64,000 bases of DNA, from assembly GCA_044229975.1 (NCBI GenBank), contig JBGARZ010000022.1, positions 32,001 through 96,000 of the forward strand, given 5' to 3'. Of this stretch, positions 990-13,709 are shown piece by piece. Both the position numbers and the translations under genes were made by a program. Origin of the DNA: Polyangiales bacterium. GTDB lineage: Bacteria; Myxococcota_A; Polyangia; Polyangiales; Ga0077539. Position 1 is the first letter of the stretch. Every line of letters begins with the position of its first letter. Below the pieces are notes generated by a model. That model was not told the origin of the DNA. It made no database searches and was given only the letters and a program-made list of their open reading frames with translations.

Positions 990-1226
990 GCGGCGGCGGA
1001 GTTCGCGTGCCGCCCATGGGTCGGAGTGCGGTCGCTCACTCCGGGCTATTTCACGTGGTCACCTCGCTGCGCGAGGTTGCAGGGACTCACAACCGACCAT
1101 GGATGGTCGATGGGTTGTTCATTGAAACCAACGCTGCAACCTCGCGCAGCGAGGTGACCACGTGAAGTAGCCCGGAGTGAGCGACCGCACTGCGACTCAT
1201 GGGCGGCACGCGAACTCCGCCGCCGC
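990..1226. repeat. long inverted repeat (93-bp arms, 51-bp loop); REP/MITE-like
   Basis: Arms 990-1082 and 1134-1226 are reverse complements with 3 mismatches; lies between convergent genes. Confidence 0.9.
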
Positions 1227-3333: not shown

Positions 3334-3417
3334 CGGCAAGTACCTCACTGGGGCCGATGGTAGGCACGCCTCGCCAACGCGCGAAACCTACGAGCGCGCG
3401 ATGGTGACGGGTGGGAT

Positions 3418-3572
3418 CTACGCCGCGGCGTCCACGCGGGGCACACCGGTCGGGCCCGCAGTGCGCGGGTCCTACGCCGCGGCGTAGGGCAAGCGCAGTG
3501 GTCGGGTTCCTCCTCACCGGGCCTACGCCGCGGCGTCAGCGCGGCGCGCGCCGGTCGGGCCCGCAGTGCGCG
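3418..3572. repeat. 2-3 degenerate copies of the ACGCCGCGGCGT-containing ~53-bp repeat
   Basis: tacgccgcggcgtcagcgcggcgcgccggtcgggcccgcagt matches the repeat unit at 11541-12340. Confidence 0.85.
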
Positions 3573-3621
3573 AGGCCACACTGCCAGTCCCGCTCGCACG
3601 AAGCGGCCCTACGTTGGGCTC

Positions 3622-3954
3622 ATGAGCAGCGAAACCAACGCGGTGACCTGGAAGGACGGCTCCCGGTGGAGCACGGGGGCGGGCGTATTCCGACGACTGA
3701 CCGGACGGCTCGACGGGCTGCGCGACACGGTGGTGGGCTTGGGGCCGGTGCTCGATCGGTGGAAGGCACGGGGCGCGGGGGCCGTCGACGTGGACGACTT
3801 CGCGCCGACGGAGGACGACCGCGCAGTGCTGACCGCGGCGCTGGCGCGGGTGGTCGAGGACGACGACGGGGACGCGAGCGAGGAGGGGAGGGCGGTGGGC
3901 ACCGAGGCGCGGGCGCTGCACGAGTTGTTCATGACGGATGTGACGAAGGGGTAG
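3622..3954 (+). CDS. hypothetical protein
   Basis: 110-aa ORF with ATG start and host-like codon usage. Confidence 0.6.
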   Translation: MSSETNAVTWKDGSRWSTGAGVFRRLTGRLDGLRDTVVGLGPVLDRWKARGAGAVDVDDFAPTEDDRAVLTAALARVVEDDDGDASEEGRAVGTEARALHELFMTDVTKG

Positions 3955-3995
3955 CGGCGGAGGCGGGGGCAGTCGGCACCAGCGGCTTGTTGGGC
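3948..3995 (-). other. truncated attC-like site (R''/L'' half only)
   Basis: gtcggcaccagcggcttGTTGGGC matches the conserved arm of the 91-bp sites; the other arm is missing. Confidence 0.7.
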
Positions 3996-4041
3996 GGGGC
4001 TCCACTCTGTCCCGAAGGCATCCTCAAAACCGAGGCGTTCG

Positions 4042-4479
4042 TCAGCCTGCAACGTCGGGTTCGGGAGAATCCACCACGAGATCCGGATGAAGAGTGTGCG
4101 TTTCCCAGAAGTAGGGGTGTTCCCGAAGGACCGGCGTTGGCTTGATGGTCCGCTGTGCGGGGCGCATGCGACTCTTGAATCGCTCGTCGATGGGTGTGAC
4201 AGCTGCGCGAAGGCGCGCTGCTGTCTCGGCGCTTGCATGCTCGATGGAGAGTTGAATCCATACGCGGCAGCCAATCTCGTGGTTGTACTCGGATGGGTCC
4301 CAGTTCGACCAGTCGGTGTCCACGAACTGAGCCCACTGGGAGAAGTGGTCATGGAGTGTCGCTCCAACGTATGCGTCTACAAGAGTCGGGTGCTCGCCCC
4401 AGCGCTGAATCGCCACTCGAATTGCGGCCAGGTCGGTCAGGGTAATCGACACGTCGAACTCTGGTTCTCGTACTTGCAC
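4042..4479 (-). CDS. cassette-encoded hypothetical protein (145 aa)
   Basis: GTG at 4479 preceded by GAGG; stop lies 46 bp before the half attC. Confidence 0.7.
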   Translation of the reverse strand: MQVREPEFDVSITLTDLAAIRVAIQRWGEHPTLVDAYVGATLHDHFSQWAQFVDTDWSNWDPSEYNHEIGCRVWIQLSIEHASAETAARLRAAVTPIDERFKSRMRPAQRTIKPTPVLREHPYFWETHTLHPDLVVDSPEPDVAG

Positions 4480-4494
4480 CGTTGCCTCGATTTT

Positions 4495-4585
4495 GCCTGA
4501 TGGCTGGCCGCCGCGCCGCCGCAGCGGACGCGACGGGGTAGTGGCGGGTGAAGCGACCGCGGTCGGCACCATCGGCTTGTTGGGC
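4495..4585 (-). other. attC-like site with degenerate R' core
   Basis: Minus strand GCCCAACAAGCCGATGGTGCCGACCGC...ATCAGGC (R' no longer starts with GTT); 91 bp. Confidence 0.8.
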
Positions 4586-4597
4586 AGGGCGCGCATC

Positions 4598-5116
4598 TCA
4601 AGTCTCGGCGACCGCTGGGAGAGCATTGAAGTCCCTGATCGACGACTCGACCAGATTCGCCAGAGCGATCCATTCACCTGGGACAATCGCACCGTGCCAC
4701 GACAATCGCGATCTCGCTTGCCCTACAAATGCAGCCACCTCGTAGCGCACTCCGTCGCAGGCTTCTGCCGGTATTCGTTGTGTTCGTATGGGGACCAAAA
4801 GACCGTCAATCGATCCCACCAACTTCTCGACGATCTCCGGGTCGATCATCACCCGAGAAAATCCAAAAACGAAGTCGTCCTCGGGCTCTGCGGAAAGAGA
4901 ACGGTACAGCCGCAGTACATCCTCTCTGTAGATTTCATAGCATACGGTAGGTTCGAACGAGGGTCTATATACAAGTTGAAGCAGGCGTTCGCCCGAGCCA
5001 GGAAAGCACCACCATTCGTCGTGGATATGCCTCGGCGTGGTCGTCGCGATCCGCTTCTCGCTCTCGAACTCCGCGAGGCGCCTCTCAAGTTTTCGCTGCG
5101 CCTTAGTACTCGGCAT
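4598..5116 (-). CDS. cassette-encoded hypothetical protein (172 aa)
   Basis: ORF fills the interval between two attC sites; stop 12 bp before R''. Confidence 0.75.
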   Translation of the reverse strand: MPSTKAQRKLERRLAEFESEKRIATTTPRHIHDEWWCFPGSGERLLQLVYRPSFEPTVCYEIYREDVLRLYRSLSAEPEDDFVFGFSRVMIDPEIVEKLVGSIDGLLVPIRTQRIPAEACDGVRYEVAAFVGQARSRLSWHGAIVPGEWIALANLVESSIRDFNALPAVAET

Positions 5117-5195
5117 CGCTACTCTCCCAATCTACTGCCGTCCCGCAGGCAGAGCGATCTCATGGGACGCCTACAATCGGCGGCGACGAGGCTCC

Positions 5196-5286
5196 GCCCA
5201 ACGGCAGGCCTCTGTGCCGCCGCAGCGGGCACGGCTGGTTGGCAGAGGGTGAATGGGGAGCGGTCGGCACCATCGGCTTGTTGGGC
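5196..5286 (-). other. attC-like site
   Basis: Minus strand GCCCAAC...GTTGGGC; 91 bp; L' arm slightly mismatched. Confidence 0.88.
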
Positions 5287-5306
5287 TCACCGCTCTTTGG
5301 TAGGCT
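5278..5306 (+). promoter_or_regulatory. putative sigma70 promoter of the TA cassette
   Basis: TTGTTG-17 bp-TAGGCT with TGn extended -10; ATG follows 7 nt after the -10 box. Confidence 0.45.
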
Positions 5307-5313
5307 CCCCGAC

Positions 5314-5508
5314 ATGACTGCCAGGAAGATCGAAAACCGCCTCCCCGACGACCACCCCGCCTTGTTGGCTGCACGGCGTGCCCCGATCGAGTCCGAAACG
5401 GATGAGGAACGTGAGGTGGTCGAGGCTGCGATGAACTCGGGACAACTCGTGCCTGGGTCGATCGTGACGGCGGAACTCGCGCGGCGCGCACGTCGGCCCC
5501 ATGGCTGA
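5314..5508 (+). CDS. putative antitoxin (64 aa)
   Basis: Small ORF with an acidic stretch (ESETDEERE), overlapping the downstream RelE-like ORF by 8 bp. Confidence 0.6.
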   Translation: MTARKIENRLPDDHPALLAARRAPIESETDEEREVVEAAMNSGQLVPGSIVTAELARRARRPHG

Positions 5509-5746
5509 TTTGGAGATTCTCTGGACCCCCGCTGCGATCTGGGCGCTCCGCAGCTTTCACTGGCGTGAGGGCGAAGTCATTGACGCCGCTGTGCAGAAGT
5601 TTGCTCGGACGGGCGAGGGGCATGTGACTCGAATTGACGGGTCGCTGAGCCGGATGCGCCTCTACGTGCCGCCATTCACCGTGCGGTTCAGCCTGGACCA
5701 AGACAAGGGCGTACTCGTGGTCGCTTGGGTGTGGCGACAAGACTGA
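5501..5746 (+). CDS. RelE/ParE-superfamily toxin-like protein (81 aa)
   Basis: EILWTPAAIWAL...IDAAVQKFARTGEGHVTRIDG...RL.V...TVRF...LVV pattern resembles the RelE fold. Confidence 0.7.
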   Translation: MADLEILWTPAAIWALRSFHWREGEVIDAAVQKFARTGEGHVTRIDGSLSRMRLYVPPFTVRFSLDQDKGVLVVAWVWRQD

Positions 5747-5903
5747 CGAGCAGGCTGTCGATGCCCTGGCCTCGCCGCTCGGTGCTTGGTTTGTCGTCAT
5801 CCCGCTGCCCTCGTTGATCGCAGCCCGCTGTCCGCAGTCGACTGCCTGTTGCTCGTTGACCGCGACTCGCAGCTTGCTCTTCCACAGCCCGTCGCTCGTC
5901 GCT

Positions 5904-5994
5904 GCCCAACGGCCTGCCGATGTGCCGCCGCAACGGGTGCAGCGGGTTGGTGGTGGGTGAAGCGGGAGCGGTCGGCACCATCGGCTTGTTAGAT
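5904..5994 (-). other. attC-like site
   Basis: Minus strand ATCTAAC...GTTGGGC; 91 bp. Confidence 0.92.
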
Positions 5995-6153
5995 GTGCCG
6001 GATATCGCTCGCCGCTCACCCGTTTGCCGGAACCCGTTACTCGTCGTCTCGTCTGTCGCCTCGGCCGTTGTCACGCCACTGCTCTCACTGGCCGATGCAT
6101 GGAGTCTTTGGGAGAGATTGCTGATTGCAGGCCGGAGAGGTGACACAGCATGG

Positions 6154-6429
6154 CTACACTCGATACTCCAGCCCAAGGAGATTCATCGCCTCTTTCAATG
6201 CGATCGGTCTAGCGGCCTTCGTCTGCTCATCAACGAAGAGAAAGTTACTTGTACCAAGCGGCATATACGCCATGTCGCGATCCACCGTCCAACGAGCGTC
6301 AGCGTATGGAGCGACCCAACCGCCCTCTACCTTGGTGTAGTCCTCCTTCCGCGTCGCGAGCCTGTCATCGATATAGTCCACTCGGCCCAGAGCTTCTTCA
6401 GCAAGTCGATACGCCTCGTCTACATCCAT
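6154..6429 (-). CDS. cassette-encoded YrhB/Imm35-like protein (91 aa)
   Basis: ATG at 6429 with GAGGT RBS; GGWVAPY...LGTSNFLFVDEQT resembles the YrhB motif GW.F.Y...LAGN.P..VD..TG. Confidence 0.5.
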   Translation of the reverse strand: MDVDEAYRLAEEALGRVDYIDDRLATRKEDYTKVEGGWVAPYADARWTVDRDMAYMPLGTSNFLFVDEQTKAARPIALKEAMNLLGLEYRV

Positions 6430-6719
6430 CACGGCACCTCGTCCCTTGACTCCCTCACAAGCCCCACGACCGCTCTTCACACACCGCGTGAGGCGTATTT
6501 CTTCCTCGCCTTTTCCAAATAGATGCACCAGACGTCACCGCCGGCCGCCTGCTCGCTGGGGTCTTTCGTCGTTCGTCGTCTGGACCGTTGTCACGCCGCT
6601 TTCCTCATTGACCGATGCTCGCGGTCGCCACTCGTTGTCCGTTGCCCACAGCCCATTGCTCGTTGGCCGTGGCCCAATCGTTGCCTTTTCGCCGCCCGTA
6701 GCTCGCTGCCCTGTGCTCT

Positions 6720-6810
6720 ATCTAACGACTGGCCGATGTGCCGCCGCAGCAGACGCGGCGGGGTGGTAGTGGGTGAGGTGGCGGCGGTCGGCACCATCGG
6801 CTTGTTGGAC
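6720..6810 (-). other. attC-like site
   Basis: Minus strand GTCCAAC...GTTAGAT; 91 bp. Confidence 0.92.
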
Positions 6811-6845
6811 ATCTCGGCAGACGCGGGGTGTATGTTTGCAGCCAG

Positions 6846-8573
6846 CTATTCCGCAGACCACCTCGGGACAAACGACGTTGCCGGGACAGTCATCAGCTTC
6901 ATCAACTCCTTGCCGTTCGGCCACCCCGGAATCATTGTCGCAACGGTGCTCGCTGCGAGGCTTTCAGCATTTACACTGGCGACCGCCTTCAGCCAGTTCA
7001 TTGGACTGAACAACTTTCCGCTTGGTTGTGTATTGATCGCATTCTGAAGAGCATTGTCCAAGCAGCTGGCAGCCAGCGTCAGGATCTCGGTCGGCTGCTG
7101 AGCCGCCTTCAACGTCGCGGCGGGCTCCACAACGAGTTGCTGCTTGTTGGCTCTGGCAATAATAGCCGACACAACAAACAGCACATGATACTTAGCATAG
7201 CCCTTTCCTGCCTTTATCGTATCGTCGAACGTAAAATTGGACCACAGATCCTCAATGGCGTTCAGCCACGTCTGGAGGGCAAGCATTGACGCCGGATTGT
7301 AGCCAGTACGAAAGAGAGTTTTGTAGTGATCATCAAACAATCGTTTCTCGTTATACGAAATATTCGGCCTCTGGCAGTGCCAGGCCATTAGCATTTTTCC
7401 GAGTATGGCTGTGTCGATGGTCTTTGCCGCATCTCTATTGGCAGGTCGTTCTTCTCCTCTCTTGGTGAGGAGATAGCCGTCCGGGTATTGAATCTCATAC
7501 GCTCTCTTCAGTCCCACCAAGACCTTGTCGTTGCTCTTAAGATCTCGTGGCTTTACCTGAGTCTGCGAGTTCGTGTTGATGCTGATTCGATCCCCAAGCG
7601 CTCGGTCAGGAATCTCGTAAAGCCGAAAGAGAATTCGCGCATCGGAGGCTTCCGACGAGCGCACTCGCTCCGAGACCGAAAAGATCGTTGAAAGCGACTG
7701 GCATCCGTTCACGACGCTCAGTCCCTTGATGTTCATGGTTTTCCCGTCGTCGCTTATGGCGACGGAATCACATAGTGCGGTAACGCCATTGTGGTAGAAG
7801 AAAAATTCCCTCACTCGATCGCCATTGTTGATGGTGTCTTTGAGTGCCCTGTTTACCTTGTTCATTCCGAGCGACTGACGGACGTTCTTGCGAAAAAGAC
7901 GCCCGTCCTTGATCCCAGGCAGCCGTAGACATTCCTTCAAAGGCAAGACGGCTAGTACCGTCTGGGCAGAGCCTAGCTTTGTGACCAATGTGCTAGCAGG
8001 ATCAACGATCATCGCATGGTCCAATGACGGAAGTTCCTGCGCTTCAGCCTCGGCGAGCCGCAGCTTGAGAACATCTGTGTCGATGAGATGGAGCCCTGCT
8101 TCGAAGTCGTCAGATTTTTCCAGATTTTCCGCAAAGGCTTTCAAGTCTCCCCGCGCAGCGTCGGTCAATGCGCCCGTCGTGATCAACTCGAAGTCCACTC
8201 GGTAGTCGTCCTCCAGAGCTCGTCGAACCGCTTCGAGTTTCACTTTGAGTTTGTCGTTGGCATCCTTTTGCAAGGACGGAAGGTCTTGAAGTCGCATCCA
8301 CGCGCCTAGCACTTCACGAAGCGGCTCCCCATCGACGGGGCTCCCGTCGATGAATTTGCCTTGAATAACGATCACTCTACGCTCTTCGTCCTCAACGATG
8401 ATGGCGTCGATCTGCTTGTCATTGGCGCCGTCGGTGATGTCGTCCCGCGTTGCGACCGCATCACGAAGCAGTACCCTTCGCAGATGCCAGGCAACAAAAC
8501 GCTGGCCATCGTTGGCGAAATTCTGCTGATAGTAACTACCGTCCGTGATCTCACGCTTGATCTGATCGATCAT
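6846..8573 (-). CDS. AIPR family protein (abortive infection phage resistance) with N-terminal PD-(D/E)xK-like domain
   Basis: LFRKNVRQSLG, FFFYHNGVT, VVNGCQS, NTNSQTQVKPRDLKSND; N-terminal DGANDKQIDAI...IQGKF; GGAGG RBS; AT-richer than flanks. Confidence 0.92.
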   Translation of the reverse strand: MIDQIKREITDGSYYQQNFANDGQRFVAWHLRRVLLRDAVATRDDITDGANDKQIDAIIVEDEERRVIVIQGKFIDGSPVDGEPLREVLGAWMRLQDLPSLQKDANDKLKVKLEAVRRALEDDYRVDFELITTGALTDAARGDLKAFAENLEKSDDFEAGLHLIDTDVLKLRLAEAEAQELPSLDHAMIVDPASTLVTKLGSAQTVLAVLPLKECLRLPGIKDGRLFRKNVRQSLGMNKVNRALKDTINNGDRVREFFFYHNGVTALCDSVAISDDGKTMNIKGLSVVNGCQSLSTIFSVSERVRSSEASDARILFRLYEIPDRALGDRISINTNSQTQVKPRDLKSNDKVLVGLKRAYEIQYPDGYLLTKRGEERPANRDAAKTIDTAILGKMLMAWHCQRPNISYNEKRLFDDHYKTLFRTGYNPASMLALQTWLNAIEDLWSNFTFDDTIKAGKGYAKYHVLFVVSAIIARANKQQLVVEPAATLKAAQQPTEILTLAASCLDNALQNAINTQPSGKLFSPMNWLKAVASVNAESLAASTVATMIPGWPNGKELMKLMTVPATSFVPRWSAE

Positions 8574-8731
8574 ATTTTTTCCTCCGGTGTGCTTGCGAGA
8601 GTGTCAGAGCCGACTGCCGTTGTTCAAGAGTCTTCGTGTCGCCTGCGTCGTAATCACCACATTGATCGCTTTTCTTCGCTCGTGACCCGCCGTTTGCCAC
8701 CTCACAGCCGGCCGCCCGCTGCTCTGTGGCT

Positions 8732-8822
8732 GTCCAACGGCTGGCCGATGTGCCGCCGCAGCGGGTGTAACGGGTTGGCATTGGGCGAGTTGGCGGCGGT
8801 CGGCACCATCGGCTTGTTGGGC
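8732..8822 (-). other. attC-like site
   Basis: Minus strand GCCCAACAAGCCGATGGTGCCGACCGC...GCGGCGGCACATCGGCCAGCCGTTGGAC; 91 bp. Confidence 0.92.
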
Positions 8823-8870
8823 GGTCTTGCCACAGAGTCCTGATCTCCAGATCGACGAAGCCGCGCAGTA

Positions 8871-9653
8871 TCACTTAGTCCCGAGTGCTCGATCCCACAA
8901 CAAGACTTGTGTTTGAATGGCTCCGGAGTCACCACCAGACAGCATGTCAAATTCTTCATTTGACATCGCGGCGATTTTTTCTCTAATAAGCTGATCTTCA
9001 GAAAGCAATCGCCGGTTCTGAATTGCTGAATTTGATCTTGCAAAGCCCAGCATACAGCGGACAACTCCATCAGCGAGCGTTTTCCGATCCGCGGATCGCA
9101 ACCAAGCGATCAGGCGGTTCAGATCGGCTAACGAATCAGACGTCGGACGCATGCCCGATAAAAGAAAAAGACCTTCGTAATGATACCACAACACGTCATC
9201 AAAAGAGCAGGACGGCCGTTGCCAATCTTGATACCGCACGGAACACAGCTCTTCGTAGAAGAGCCGAGAAGCCTCGAGTCGTTGCGCAACCCGATCAGCC
9301 GAACAGGGCGCCGTGTGAGCAGTTACCACGCTGATGGTGCCGTAGGCCGTGTCCAATGAGTACTTATCGAACTCGTGGCCGAACGGACGCCGATCCACGT
9401 CCTTTCGTACGGACTGAATCGCCGCCTTCATCTCTCCCCAGAGATACGCTCGCCACTTCGGACCGTCCCAACTGAAGTCGCTCGTCGCGTCGATCACAAC
9501 GATCTGATCGGCCGCAACCGGTTGGACAGGGATCTGGGGGAATTGCCCTGACTTCTTGTACGCTCGCGCCCATCGCATGCCCTCGCGCCGCACCGCCTGC
9601 CGAACAGCAGGAGCGGTTCCATAGAGGAAATCTGGAATTTCCAAGCACTTCAT
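8871..9653 (-). CDS. cassette-encoded hypothetical protein (260 aa)
   Basis: ATG with GAGGA RBS; stop 48 bp before attC; AT-richer codons. Confidence 0.8.
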   Translation of the reverse strand: MKCLEIPDFLYGTAPAVRQAVRREGMRWARAYKKSGQFPQIPVQPVAADQIVVIDATSDFSWDGPKWRAYLWGEMKAAIQSVRKDVDRRPFGHEFDKYSLDTAYGTISVVTAHTAPCSADRVAQRLEASRLFYEELCSVRYQDWQRPSCSFDDVLWYHYEGLFLLSGMRPTSDSLADLNRLIAWLRSADRKTLADGVVRCMLGFARSNSAIQNRRLLSEDQLIREKIAAMSNEEFDMLSGGDSGAIQTQVLLWDRALGTK

Positions 9654-9719
9654 CGCGTCCTCTCTTGGCTAGAATACCGCATCGATGAGCGGGTCAGCGA
9701 GTTCATCGGGGGGCGTCAC

Positions 9720-9763
9720 GCCCAACTCTGTCCGCCCAACATCTCATTCACCCGCCGCCCAAC
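9720..9763 (-). other. candidate array entry point (attI-like); three GTTGGGC cores
   Basis: GCCCAAC on + strand at 9720, 9734 and 9757; complementary to R'' of the first attC. Confidence 0.45.
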
Positions 9764-9777
9764 CTCACTCTTCTGCT

Positions 9778-9960
9778 GTTCGCCCGCCGCCGTCACTGCC
9801 GAACCCCATTTCGTCCGTTGTTCGCCCGCCGCCGTCACTGCCGAATCCCCATTCGTCCGTGGTTCGCCCGCTGCCGTCACTGCCGAACCCCGTTCGTCCG
9901 TTGTTCGCCCGCCGCCGTCACTGCCGAACCCCATTCTCCCGTTGTTCGCCCGCCGCTGTC
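9778..9960. repeat. 41-42-bp tandem repeat, about 4.4 copies
   Basis: gttcgcccgccgccgtcactgccgaaccccattcgtccgtt starting at 9778, 9820, 9862, 9903 and 9944 (partial). Confidence 0.9.
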
Positions 9961-10516
9961 CACCCCTCCGCGCCCGCGCCGCCCTTCTGCTCGCCCATGC
10001 CCGCGGCGCCCGCGCCGCTCCGATCGAATCTGCCCATCGACGCCAACCCGCGGATCCCGCCATCGGCCGCGTCGAAGTCCACCGCCCCCACGCGCCTCGT
10101 GTGCCAACACGGCTTCCCCATATCGCGTCCCTCTGCCGCCGTCGCGACCTGCACAGCAACAACCCTCCACAAGGCGCCCCACGATGTTGCTGCGCCCGGA
10201 GGCAGCGATCGTCGCTCCATCTGTCGCCGCGTCGTCACCGATGACCCCAATGAACCCCGAACGACCCTCCGCACCATCCAGGAGCCGCCAGGCCACGAGG
10301 ACCGCCGCACCACGATGATCGCCCCTCCACCATGTTGTCGACCGCAGCTCGCCAGGCGTGGCGAGCCCGCTCGACCGCCGGTCGCCCTTCACTCCCCTTC
10401 AATCCTCAGTTGATCGTTGGAACCGCTCCCACAGCAGTGTGCGGGAGCGCGTCGTTTCCGGGGCATCCGGCCATGCGGGAGCCGCATCCCTCTTCGGTCA
10501 GCGGTGCGCCTCTGCG

Positions 10517-11323
10517 CTATGCCGTCCCCTTCTTGTCGTCCGTCCCTTCGGTCTTCCCCTTCGCCTTCGCCTTCTTCTTCCCGACCGCCCTCCCGGGCCG
10601 CCGGAACCGCCGCGCCTCCGCCGCGTCCTCCCGCAGCGCGAAGCGCCCTGCGGTGCACAGCCGCGCCGCGATCGCATCGACCTGCGTCCAGGCCGCGTTG
10701 CGCAGTCGTGTGTGCAGCTTGTTCGCTTCGGCGTCCGGCGCTGACACCTTCGGCAACGCCGCCGCCGCCTTCGTCATCCGCTTCCGCGCTGCGCCCAGCT
10801 TCGAGAAGCGCACCAACGACGCCTTGTTCTCCTCGCAGAACGCCTCAAGCGCCCGCACATCATCGTGCAGGTCGGCGAGCCCGTCGCCGCGCAACACCTC
10901 ACGGCACCACGCGCGCTTCCTGGCGTCCTTGCGAAACGCGAAGCGAATGACCGCCACGACATCGCCTTCCGCCGCGCGCGCTTCGTCGTAGAGCGTCTTC
11001 TGCTTGGGCGTGAGGTTCGACGTGCCCACCTGCCGCCGCGTGTGCTCGTCCTGAAGCGTGGTCAGCAGCGCCAGCGCCCCCGAAAACCGCCCGATCTCGC
11101 CCTCGGTCAGATCGTCGTCGGGGTCCATCGGCGTCGCCAGCAGGGCAGCCTTGTGGGGCCCGACCGCGGCCTCCAGCGCCTGCGCCCACGTGATGTACGC
11201 CGGAACATCCCGATTGGGCCGCTTGATCTCCCCTGCGGGAACAGCCTCCAACTCCGACCGCAGCGCCGCCCCGACATCCCGGGGCACGCGGCTCCCACCC
11301 GTCTTCGTCTTCCGCTCCGCCAT
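10517..11323 (-). CDS. hypothetical helical protein with Lys-rich tail (268 aa)
   Basis: ATG at 11323 with GGAGG RBS; the upstream extension in the ORF track is repeat DNA. Confidence 0.75.
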   Translation of the reverse strand: MAERKTKTGGSRVPRDVGAALRSELEAVPAGEIKRPNRDVPAYITWAQALEAAVGPHKAALLATPMDPDDDLTEGEIGRFSGALALLTTLQDEHTRRQVGTSNLTPKQKTLYDEARAAEGDVVAVIRFAFRKDARKRAWCREVLRGDGLADLHDDVRALEAFCEENKASLVRFSKLGAARKRMTKAAAALPKVSAPDAEANKLHTRLRNAAWTQVDAIAARLCTAGRFALREDAAEARRFRRPGRAVGKKKAKAKGKTEGTDDKKGTA

Positions 11324-11386
11324 GTGCAGACCTCCAGCAACGACCGTATCAGCGGCTGCCAGAGCGCAGCAACGCCTACATGGGTC

Positions 11387-11519
11387 GGTGAGCGGGTCGA
11401 CCAGTGTGGTGAGCGGGTCGACCGGTGTGGTGAGCGGGTCGACCAGTGTGGTGAGCGGGTCGACCAGTGTGGTGAGCGGGTCGACCAGTGTGGTGAGCGG
11501 GTCGACCAGTGTGGTGAGC
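11387..11519. repeat. 21-bp tandem repeat, about 6.3 copies
   Basis: ggtgagcgggtcgaccagtgt, near-identical units. Confidence 0.95.
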
Positions 11520-11540
11520 CCGTCGGACAACTCGGTGAGC

Positions 11541-12340
11541 CGCGCACCGATCAGGCCCGCAGTCACGGGGGCCCACGCCGCGGCGTCAGCGCGGCGCGCA
11601 CCGGTCCGGCCCGCAGTCACCGGGGCTACGCCGCGGCGTCAGCGCGGCGCGCATTGGTCAGGCCCGCAGCCACCGGGGCCACGCCGCGGCGTCAGCGCGG
11701 CGCGCATTGGTCAGGCCCGCAGTCACCGGGGCTACGCCGCGGCGTCAGCGCGGCGCGCACCGGTCAGGCCCCAGTCGCCTGCCGTCCGTTGATCGATGTT
11801 GGTCCGGACTGTGACTGCAGGCCCGACCGTTGCGCGCCGCGCTGACGCCGCGGCGTGGGCCCCGGTGACTGCGGGCCTGACCGTTGCGCGCCGCGCTGAC
11901 GCTGCGGCGTAGCCCCGGTGGCTGCAGGCCCGACCGTTGCGCGCCGCGCTGACGCCGCGGCGTAGCCCCGGTGACTGCGGGCCCGACCGGTGCACGCCGC
12001 GCTGACGCTGCGGCGTGGCCCCCGTGACTGCGGGCCTGACCGGTGCGCGCCGCGCTGACGCCGCGGCGTGGGTCCGCCGACTGCGGGCCTGACCGTTGCG
12101 CGCCGCGCTAACGCTGCGGCGTAGGGCCGGTGACTGCGGACGTGAGCGTTGCGCGCCGCGCTGACGCCGCGGCGTGGGCCCCCGTGACTGCGGGCCTGAC
12201 CGGTGCGCGCCGCGCTGACGCCGCGGCGTGGGCCCCCGTGACTGCGGGCCTGACCGTTGCGCGCCGCGCTGACGCCGCGGCGTGGGTCCGCCGACTGCGG
12301 GCCTGACCGGTGCGCGCCGCACCGACCCCGCGGCGTGGGT
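11541..12340. repeat. 53-54-bp palindromic repeat in two opposed tandem arrays (about 4 + 10 copies)
   Basis: Unit gtgactgcgggcctgaccggtgcgcgccgcgctgACGCCGCGGCGTgggcccc; orientation flips at about 11778-11810. Confidence 0.95.
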
Positions 12341-12350
12341 CCGCCGCCGC

Positions 12351-13709
12351 TCAGTACCCGTCGATCACGCTGAGCGCCTCGTCGTGGGCCGAGTTCACCG
12401 CGGCCTGCGGGGCGGCGGAGGTCGCGCCCGAGGTCGGCGACGTCATCGCGGGCAGCGCGCGGCGCATCGAGCTCACCCGCCCGATCTGCTCCCGGTACGC
12501 GCGGCTGTTTCGCGTCGAGGCGTCGCTGCGCGCCCGGTCGAGCAGCGCGTCGAGCTGCCGCTCGGCGGCGGCGACGTTGCCGCTGCGGGCCTCGCGGATG
12601 GCGGCCACGGTGCCGACGGCGAGCTGCACCTGCGCGGCCACTGCCTCGACCTCCGCGCTACGACCGCCCTCGATCTCCGCCGCATCGCTGCTCGCGTGGG
12701 CCCCCAGAAACACATCCCGCTCGTAGCGCTCGGAGGGGGCGGCCGGGTCGTTCCAGGCGAGGCGGGCGTCGACGAGCTCGATGGGCGAGCCCGCGCGGTG
12801 CGCCGGAACGTTGAGCCTCACGATGAGGTCCCGCGTCGCCCCTTCGGTGATCTCGCCGAGCTGCACGGTGATGCCCGCGTCGGTGCGCGCGGCGTCGTGT
12901 CCGAGCACCGCCTCGATCTGCACATCGGGCCCGGGGCTCAGCGTCACCACGGCGTTGCGGGCGATGACGCGCTCCATGCGCAGCACCTCGGTGCGAAACG
13001 CCGTCGCCACCGCCGAGGAGTCTTCGACGTAGTGGAAGTGTCCGCCCGAGCGCTGCGCGATCGCGCCCATGAGGGTCTCGTTGTATTCGAGCCCGAGGCC
13101 GAGGGACGTGATGGTGATCTGGTGGGCCCCGGCGCTCGCCGCCATCGCCTCGATGCTCGCCGCGTCCGTGTTGGGAACCCCATCCCCCAACAGCACCACG
13201 CGGTTGATGCCGCCGGTGTTGAGGTGCGCGGCGACCTGCTCGATGCCGAGGCGCAGGCCGTTGGCCATGTCGGTGGTTCCGCGGGCGCGCATCGCGCTGA
13301 TGCGCTGGCGGGCCGCGGCGCGCTCGCTCGCGTCGAGGACGGCGGAGGGGAAGATGACCTCGGCGCGCGAGTCGAAGGTGACGACGGCGAGGCGGTCGCC
13401 GTCGCGCATGGCGTCGACGAGCGCGAGGCTGGCGGCGCGGGCGTCGTCGATGGGCCGACCCTCCATGGAGCCCGACGTATCGATGACGAGGCCGACGTTG
13501 ATGGGCGGTCGGATGGTCGGGTCGACGGCGGCGGTCGCGAGGCGTAGCCGCGCAACGAGCGTGCTGCGCGCCCCGGCGGGGACGAAGCGGTTGCCGAGGG
13601 CGCCGTCGAGGGAGAGGGCTTGCGGGGTTCGTGCGTGGCGCTGGGCGCCGGCGCAGGCCGCGAGGGAGGAGAACAGGGCGAAGACGAAGAGCAGCAATGG
13701 GCGTCGCAT
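12351..13709 (-). CDS. vWA-domain lipoprotein (YfbK-like)
   Basis: Lipobox LAAC; MIDAS motif DTSGSM; GTT and LLGDG motifs. Confidence 0.88.
   Translation of the reverse strand: MRRPLLLFVFALFSSLAACAGAQRHARTPQALSLDGALGNRFVPAGARSTLVARLRLATAAVDPTIRPPINVGLVIDTSGSMEGRPIDDARAASLALVDAMRDGDRLAVVTFDSRAEVIFPSAVLDASERAAARQRISAMRARGTTDMANGLRLGIEQVAAHLNTGGINRVVLLGDGVPNTDAASIEAMAASAGAHQITITSLGLGLEYNETLMGAIAQRSGGHFHYVEDSSAVATAFRTEVLRMERVIARNAVVTLSPGPDVQIEAVLGHDAARTDAGITVQLGEITEGATRDLIVRLNVPAHRAGSPIELVDARLAWNDPAAPSERYERDVFLGAHASSDAAEIEGGRSAEVEAVAAQVQLAVGTVAAIREARSGNVAAAERQLDALLDRARSDASTRNSRAYREQIGRVSSMRRALPAMTSPTSGATSAAPQAAVNSAHDEALSVIDGY

Follow-up and report, generated by a model that had tools for sequence, protein, structure and literature searches.

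In a 64,000-nucleotide stretch of a Polyangiales genome (the window), an initial annotation described heptamers that pair from one recombination site to the next, and read this chain as a record of insertions made by an integron integrase (IntI). What is the locus that carries these pairings, and what can they tell about its history? Our analysis indicates, at a probability of about 0.93, that the locus is an integron array of six cassettes, headed by an attI of its own and accompanied by a broken intI, and that the chain of core sites is the footprint predicted of IntI crossover within GTT.

Layout of the array

The features of the locus are collected in Table 1. Four of the cassettes had been outlined by the initial annotation, with lengths that are borne out by the attC repeat spacings (701, 708, 816 and 2012); the annotation had overlooked attI, the intI remnant and the first and sixth cassettes. 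The GC content of the cassettes is 0.55–0.65, against 0.71.

Table 1. Coordinates of the array and its neighbouring features in the window
Feature	Position	Strand	Description
Whole block	3955–12350		8.4 kb; array, attI, intI remnant, ORF 10517–11323, 21-bp and 53-bp repeats
Cassette 6, decayed	3955–4500	-	ORF about 4042–4479; R″ 3989–3995
Cassette 5	4501–5201	-	701 bp; 172-aa ORF 4598–5116; attC5 4495–4585
Cassette 4	5202–5909	-	708 bp; antisense toxin–antitoxin (TA) pair on plus strand; attC4 5196–5286
Putative antitoxin	5314–5508	+	Overlaps toxin gene over 5501–5508
RelE-fold toxin	5501–5746	+	AlphaFold pLDDT 92
Cassette 3	5910–6725	-	816 bp; 124-aa ORF 6154–6528; attC3 5904–5994
Cassette 2	6726–8737	-	2012 bp; 575-aa AIPR protein 6846–8573; attC2 6720–6810
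Cassette 1	8738–9739	-	1002 bp; 260-aa ORF 8871–9653; attC1 8732–8822
attI	9734–9753	-	GGGTGAATGAGATG^TTGGGC; crossover between 9740 and 9739
Direct repeats	9757–9976		Five, 41–42 bp, upstream of attI
intI pseudogene remnant	9971–10378	+	3′ half only, frameshifted

The attI site closes in GTTRRRY at the head of the array. Its motif heads four other arrays of the genome, lies ∼180 nt upstream of the intact intI in L048, and is present in G002, where it is interrupted by an IS; four further attI sites of the genome also have upstream repeats related to the direct repeats of the window. A sigma-70 search upstream of attI gave one 9-of-12 match (9962–9933, minus strand), with 2 matches found against 1.2 expected. 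The promoter and terminator scan stayed at chance level, GC skew was not specific as a marker of attI (379 peaks), and the Rfam scan gave 0 matches.

The attC sites of the window are 91 nt in length and have extrahelical bases at positions 16 and 23, which are separated by a 6-bp stem, consistent with PMC5027507; the first extrahelical bottom-strand base is C in the window array, whereas it is usually G according to that paper. The complete attC anatomy (R″/R′, L boxes, extrahelical bases, 57–141 nt, bottom-strand hairpin) is present in attC1–3 and, through decay, only partial in attC4 and attC5. The truncated attC6 retains only R″, L″ and part of the centre, and merges into the stop codon of the flanking gene (3622–3954). 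In all five sites, folding gave greater stability for the bottom strand than for the top strand. Rebuilt in their circular form, attC1–3 fold at −28.1, −27.2 and −24.3 kcal/mol, compared to −24.9, −23.0 and −22.9 kcal/mol as found; attC4 is equal in both forms and attC5 gains nothing. The folds of attC4 and attC5 are no better than those of shuffles (z = −0.03 and −0.31).

The right arm of attC5 is decayed. The base at the cassette end, 4501, is A and not G, so attC5 has lost its GTT and ends in ATCAGGC. Identical letters stand on a contig of sequencing run X2, in which 4440–4590 is unchanged.

Core-site chain at the locus

All eight heptamers of the initial annotation were recovered on the minus strand, letter by letter. 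GTTGGAC (8732–8738) pairs with GTCCAAC (6804–6810), GTTAGAT (6720–6726) with ATCTAAC (5988–5994), GTTGGGC (5904–5910) with GCCCAAC (5280–5286), and GTTGGGC (5196–5202) with GCCCAAC (4579–4585). As had also been remarked, the two cores within a site often mismatch; perfect R″/R′ pairing occurs in only one of the five full window sites. The chain extends to attI, whose heptamer (9734–9740) matches R″ of cassette 1 (8816–8822). The sixth link, ATCAGGC (4495–4501) against GCCCAAC (3989–3995), fails because of the ending of attC5.

Taken alone, the four links noted initially are weak evidence, since only two of them are non-consensus; they are equalled by 2 of 24 permutations (p = 0.083). With the attI link added, five of five are perfect (6/120 permutations), and for all six links the count is five of six (24/720 permutations).

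The chain at genome and genus scale

A profile built from the window sites gave 51 matches in the genome at E up to 10. We kept 43 of them (42 at E up to 0.001 and one degenerate in-array site), which form seven arrays and three single sites. Of the links, 32 could be scored. Among these, 22 are perfect (null mean 8.1, maximum 17 in 100,000 shuffles) and 30 have at most one mismatch, leaving 10 imperfect; within sites, pairing is perfect in 12/37. The relatives' data set holds 28 loci and 103 sites. There, 46 of 67 scored links are perfect and 21 imperfect, with nine skipped (null mean 13.2, maximum 25 in 20,000 shuffles), and within-site pairing is perfect in 21/82; kinship and common cassettes among the relatives mean that these link counts overstate independence.

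The pairing was also followed base by base in 94 of the 98 delimited cassettes. At positions 4, 6 and 7, agreement with the start of the same cassette was seen in 83, 80 and 83 of the 94, respectively (null means 39, 55 and 68), and agreement with the start of the following cassette in only 47, 57 and 66. Among 53 non-consensus starts, 32 are perfect to their own cassette and nine to the next start. Past the heptamer, position 8 exceeds the null (50/94 versus 35) and position 11 does so marginally; positions 9, 10 and 12 are not above the null in the 94 cassettes.

Breakpoints of shared cassettes

The 98 delimited cassettes yielded 18 homologous pairs. The first mismatch falls 3–10 bases past the closing G in all 18; the alignment runs from base 1 in 13, and the other five share part of the body only. 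One 570-bp cassette occurs on both contigs C19 and C23 (565/570 identical); upstream, the two copies lie in unlike DNA as far as the base preceding the G, and downstream they part 7 bases past the closing G, once the heptamer in common has ended. The initial annotation had named strain breakpoints outside the G^TT positions as refuting its reading. For the genus this test is passed: cassettes shared in the genome and the genus have their boundaries within GTT, with no window cassette among them; the window cassettes have no close copy elsewhere in their own genome, nor among the 59 cassettes from relatives. As positions 1–3 (GTT) are invariant, sequence alone places the crossover only within GTT; the exact point, G^TT, is taken from PMC5027507.

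Cassettes also occur in larger units. A block of two cassettes on contig C20 (C20-5/6) appears in the same order on C23, and there are tandem copies as well. Such pairs and tandem copies chain too, so chaining does not count events. The initial reading of the chain as a record of insertions stands as regards the expected footprint; that each cassette entered singly as a circle is more than a chain can show.

The sequencing data comprised two runs, X1 and X2, both of them small shares. Their contigs contained no credible circle junction, and for the window cassettes neither circles nor empty-site junctions were seen. The joints were short or marked 'between: not known', and lay at attC repeats in a metagenome; we therefore took none of them as evidence of a circle or an excision. 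A contig of X1 tracks attI over 9734–9755, a weak match of 22 letters, and differs from the window on the cassette side.

Cassette cargo

The cassette 2 protein matches PF10592 (AIPR; E 5e-32), in agreement with the earlier call, and PADLOC assigns it to AbiU (E 2.7e-36). By annotation it is AbiU-like and predicted to act against phage. A homologue in G011 (51% identity) had no match to the genome's attC model in the stretch examined. The TA call for cassette 4 is likewise upheld by the RelE fold: the top Foldseek match of the toxin model is an archaeal RelE (TM 0.83, E 4e-5). The toxin had no Pfam or NCBIfam match, and no locus in the metagenome contigs searched. The partner ORF is a putative antitoxin, judged by its position upstream of the toxin gene and its overlap with it. 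For the ORFs in cassettes 1, 5 and 6, family searches returned no assignment; the best Atlas score of the cassette 1 ORF is 0.75. The cassette 3 ORF has a weak Imm35 match, which is under the cut-off.

One intact integrase and eight attI-like sites

No intact intI was found beside the array, only the frameshifted 3′ remnant. By blastn and tblastn with the IntI of contig C4, it corresponds to nt 480–945 of the intact C4 intI; the catalytic Tyr and the HxLR motif are absent. The local alignment score is 210, compared to a shuffle maximum of 131, with 281 of 403 aligned bases identical, and 10141–10310 is unchanged in run X1. The C4 protein is the sole intact IntI of the genome (TIGR02249, 414.8 bits; one per genome). 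Its nearest named relatives come from Polyangiales and Deltaproteobacteria MAGs (84–85%) and from Sorangium (74–77%), which points to a host in the Myxococcota. The neighbours of the intact intI differ between this genome, L048 and L042/G004, the last two being alike. A recombinase on C19 was considered as a second IntI and rejected; it is under the TIGR02249 cut-off, is gapped in the IntI-specific region and has a Y2 transposase partner.

The genome holds eight attI-like sites, seven of them without an intact intI. Two have remnants, in the window and on C20, which share their starting point (nt 480 and 483). At the five other satellite sites no remnant was convincing: three score within shuffles, and two (C2:257027 and C23) are marginally above them in long gappy alignments without tblastn support. 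Two intI-less loci have cassette DNA in common that is 97–100% identical. One intact intI for eight attI-like sites makes it likely that the window array and several similar ones are served in trans.

The whole block is absent between the flanking genes in three congeners (G002, G003 and G004), as the homologue of ORF 3622–3954 and the vWA gene (12351–13709) end a few bases apart there. Its distal end meets the chromosome inside an attC and not at GTT, so IntI does not explain the arrival of the platform.

Discussion

In a circular cassette the attC is fully paired. When it recombines with attI at G^TT, the R′ of the circle is split and TTRRRY comes to stand at the head of the cassette; the attC is left with the G alone of its own R′ and borrows six bases from the next cassette. 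The mechanism in the initial annotation, in which IntI crosses over in GTT and the cassette's own TTRRRY comes to head it, is right, as are its four boundaries. In published accounts, recombination of a circular cassette's attC with attI gives chimeric sites (PMC4889954, PMC2674596, PMC3053210), and a cassette begins with the first T of one R′ and closes with the G of the following R′ (PMC2674596). The chain is therefore the described and expected state of any array, and adds nothing new to integron biology.

As to the history of the locus, we favour a copied platform that was later served in trans. The platform may derive from a complete integron that was copied to this site, and have lost the 5′ half of intI; cassettes would have been stacked at 9740, newest first, the distal sites attC4–6 having presumably decayed. 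Any present activity would require the single intact C4 IntI to act in trans, and the window attI gives no direct sign of recent activity. We extend this only tentatively, at clearly less than even odds, to the genus: its intI–attI platform would be copied to new sites and shed the integrase, and the attI-headed satellites would be loaded in trans by one IntI, with the window and C20 arrays stemming from one copy, as the remnant starts suggest, and the window attI still in use.

The alternative that survives best contests the in-trans step only and shares the integron origin. The array could have been built under an intact intI of its own, here or at a donor locus from which it then moved as a block, and have seen no cassette traffic since; to this we give a chance just short of even. 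A chain would survive block moves, intI is heavily decayed, attC4–6 are damaged and no window cassette is common to other arrays. Moreover, of the eight congeners searched, five gave no match to IntI at E 1e-40 and a further one has a broken copy, yet most carry attC-like sites. However, the 20-nt attI motif is intact and the same as at an intact intI, whereas the adjoining intI is ∼70% identical with many indels; attC1–3 are intact as well, and the nearly identical cassettes are shared by other attI loci of the genome that lack intI.

It is highly improbable that the units are small transposons or MITEs bounded by 7-bp terminal inverted repeats (GTTRRRY...RYYYAAC), the chain being those repeats. 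Formally, a chain does equal an inverted-repeat match at both unit ends, but the breakpoints of duplicated and shared cassettes refute this reading: duplicated units span the whole attC to the closing G, 84 bases past R″. In the window cassettes no target duplication or transposase was seen, and attI, IntI and attC anatomy are all there. Chance matching among a few common heptamers, for which the frequency of GTTGGGC (17 of the 37 R′ sites of the genome) and the permutation result for the four links speak, is refuted at genome scale and has a vanishingly small probability, as rare heptamers chain too and no shuffle reached the observed counts.

The locus would work in the manner of an integron array. 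By definition it belongs to the CALINs and not to the complete integrons, and it has kept attI and an intI pseudogene; six sites lie on contig C28, and no intact intI lies on that contig. It resembles chromosomal integron arrays (Cury et al. 2016, PMC4889954; ACID, PMC2674596) in its attI, attC-bounded cassettes, chimeric sites, cassette definition, and TA and anti-phage cargo, and differs in having no working intI. With CALINs it shares two or more attC sites, about 5–6 cassettes, the lack of an intact intI nearby and an IntI elsewhere in the genome. Unlike them, it still has an attI that can be recognised and a pseudogene of intI, the latter being nearby in only 15 of 279 CALINs in the CALIN survey, and its genome has eight attI-like sites per one intact intI. 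The attG/SALIN insertions (Loot et al., 10.1101/2022.09.11.507474) are likewise IntI-made cassettes away from the main integron; in contrast to a bare GWT site, a true attI heads the window array, with repeats upstream of it and the remnant of an intI. Mobilisation of CALIN cassettes in trans has already been proposed in PMC4889954, PMC9668308 and 10.1101/2025.06.18.660453. On several attI sites per integrase, a search by title and abstract start, which left most subscription papers outside its range, found no paper.

Chaining is a good means to delimit cassettes and to locate an unannotated attI. Of more lasting value is the context: eight attI-like sites and one integrase in a Myxococcota-type genome, with empty sites in congeners. 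If the satellites are active, part of the CALINs filed as dead would be live capture sites.

IS91-family element bounded like an integron cassette

One IS91-family element, which encodes a tyrosine recombinase and a Y2 transposase, is bounded in the manner of an integron cassette: it starts at G^TT on the attI side and ends in an attC-like hairpin, which is 111 nt in length. All four left ends seen, in the source genome (G000) and in a second genome (G001), begin with G^TTGGAC and lie directly at attI. A set of 80 metagenome loci includes 12 left ends that begin with GTTGRAC, as well as seven right ends at which a G^TT closure precedes differing DNA. One passage of PMC9229058 mentions ISShvi3 as a similar case.

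Features of the source genome and related loci
Feature	Sequence	Coordinates	Handle
IS91-family element, cassette-like bounds	G000:C19	433345-436054	L127, L158
Same element, further loci	G000:C2 (end); G001:C151; G001:C214		
Second satellite array	G000:C23	363145-369400	L124
Non-coding cassette leaders, related, 100-200 nt	window	5750-5903; 6530-6719; 8640-8731	
Array far-end junction	window	3946-3954	
G-over-C skew upstream of attI	window	9741-10240	
intI remnant starts	window; G000:C20	9971; 73391	
REP-like 53-bp repeats, inverted clusters flanking the block	window	3410-3600; 11530-12345	
21-bp tandem repeat	window	11387-11530	
Inverted repeat, 93 nt	window	990-1226	

Cassette leaders and the far end of the array

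The leaders stand at the start of several cassettes and are ~70-76% alike; they are also found in the arrays of contigs C4, C20 and C23, and certain very short cassettes seem to consist of a leader and an attC alone. At the far end of the window array, the junction with the flanking gene falls inside attC6. The final two codons before the stop of this gene are not those of its congener counterparts (TKG* in the window, TRS* in congeners), and its stop codon may be derived from attC sequence.

Sequence context of attI sites and repeats

In the 500 nt upstream of all eight attI sites, the cassette strand carries a G-over-C skew of 0.28-0.47, which ranks in the top 1% of genome bins. The skew extends into unrelated adjacent genes and is not specific to attI, as the genome contains 379 peaks of at least 0.30. 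For the REP-like repeats, the query's two repeat-bearing ends gave 1221 genome-wide BLAST hits. Elsewhere in the window, an inverted repeat (97% perfect, 51-nt spacer) separates two convergent genes.

Satellite arrays and intI remnants

The site of the second satellite array is nearly empty in genome G008, where a 67-bp gap is found, and is short in genomes G002 and G004. The intI remnants of the window and of C20 start at nearly identical points, gene nt 480 and 483, respectively, which suggests that both descend from a common truncated ancestor that was copied.
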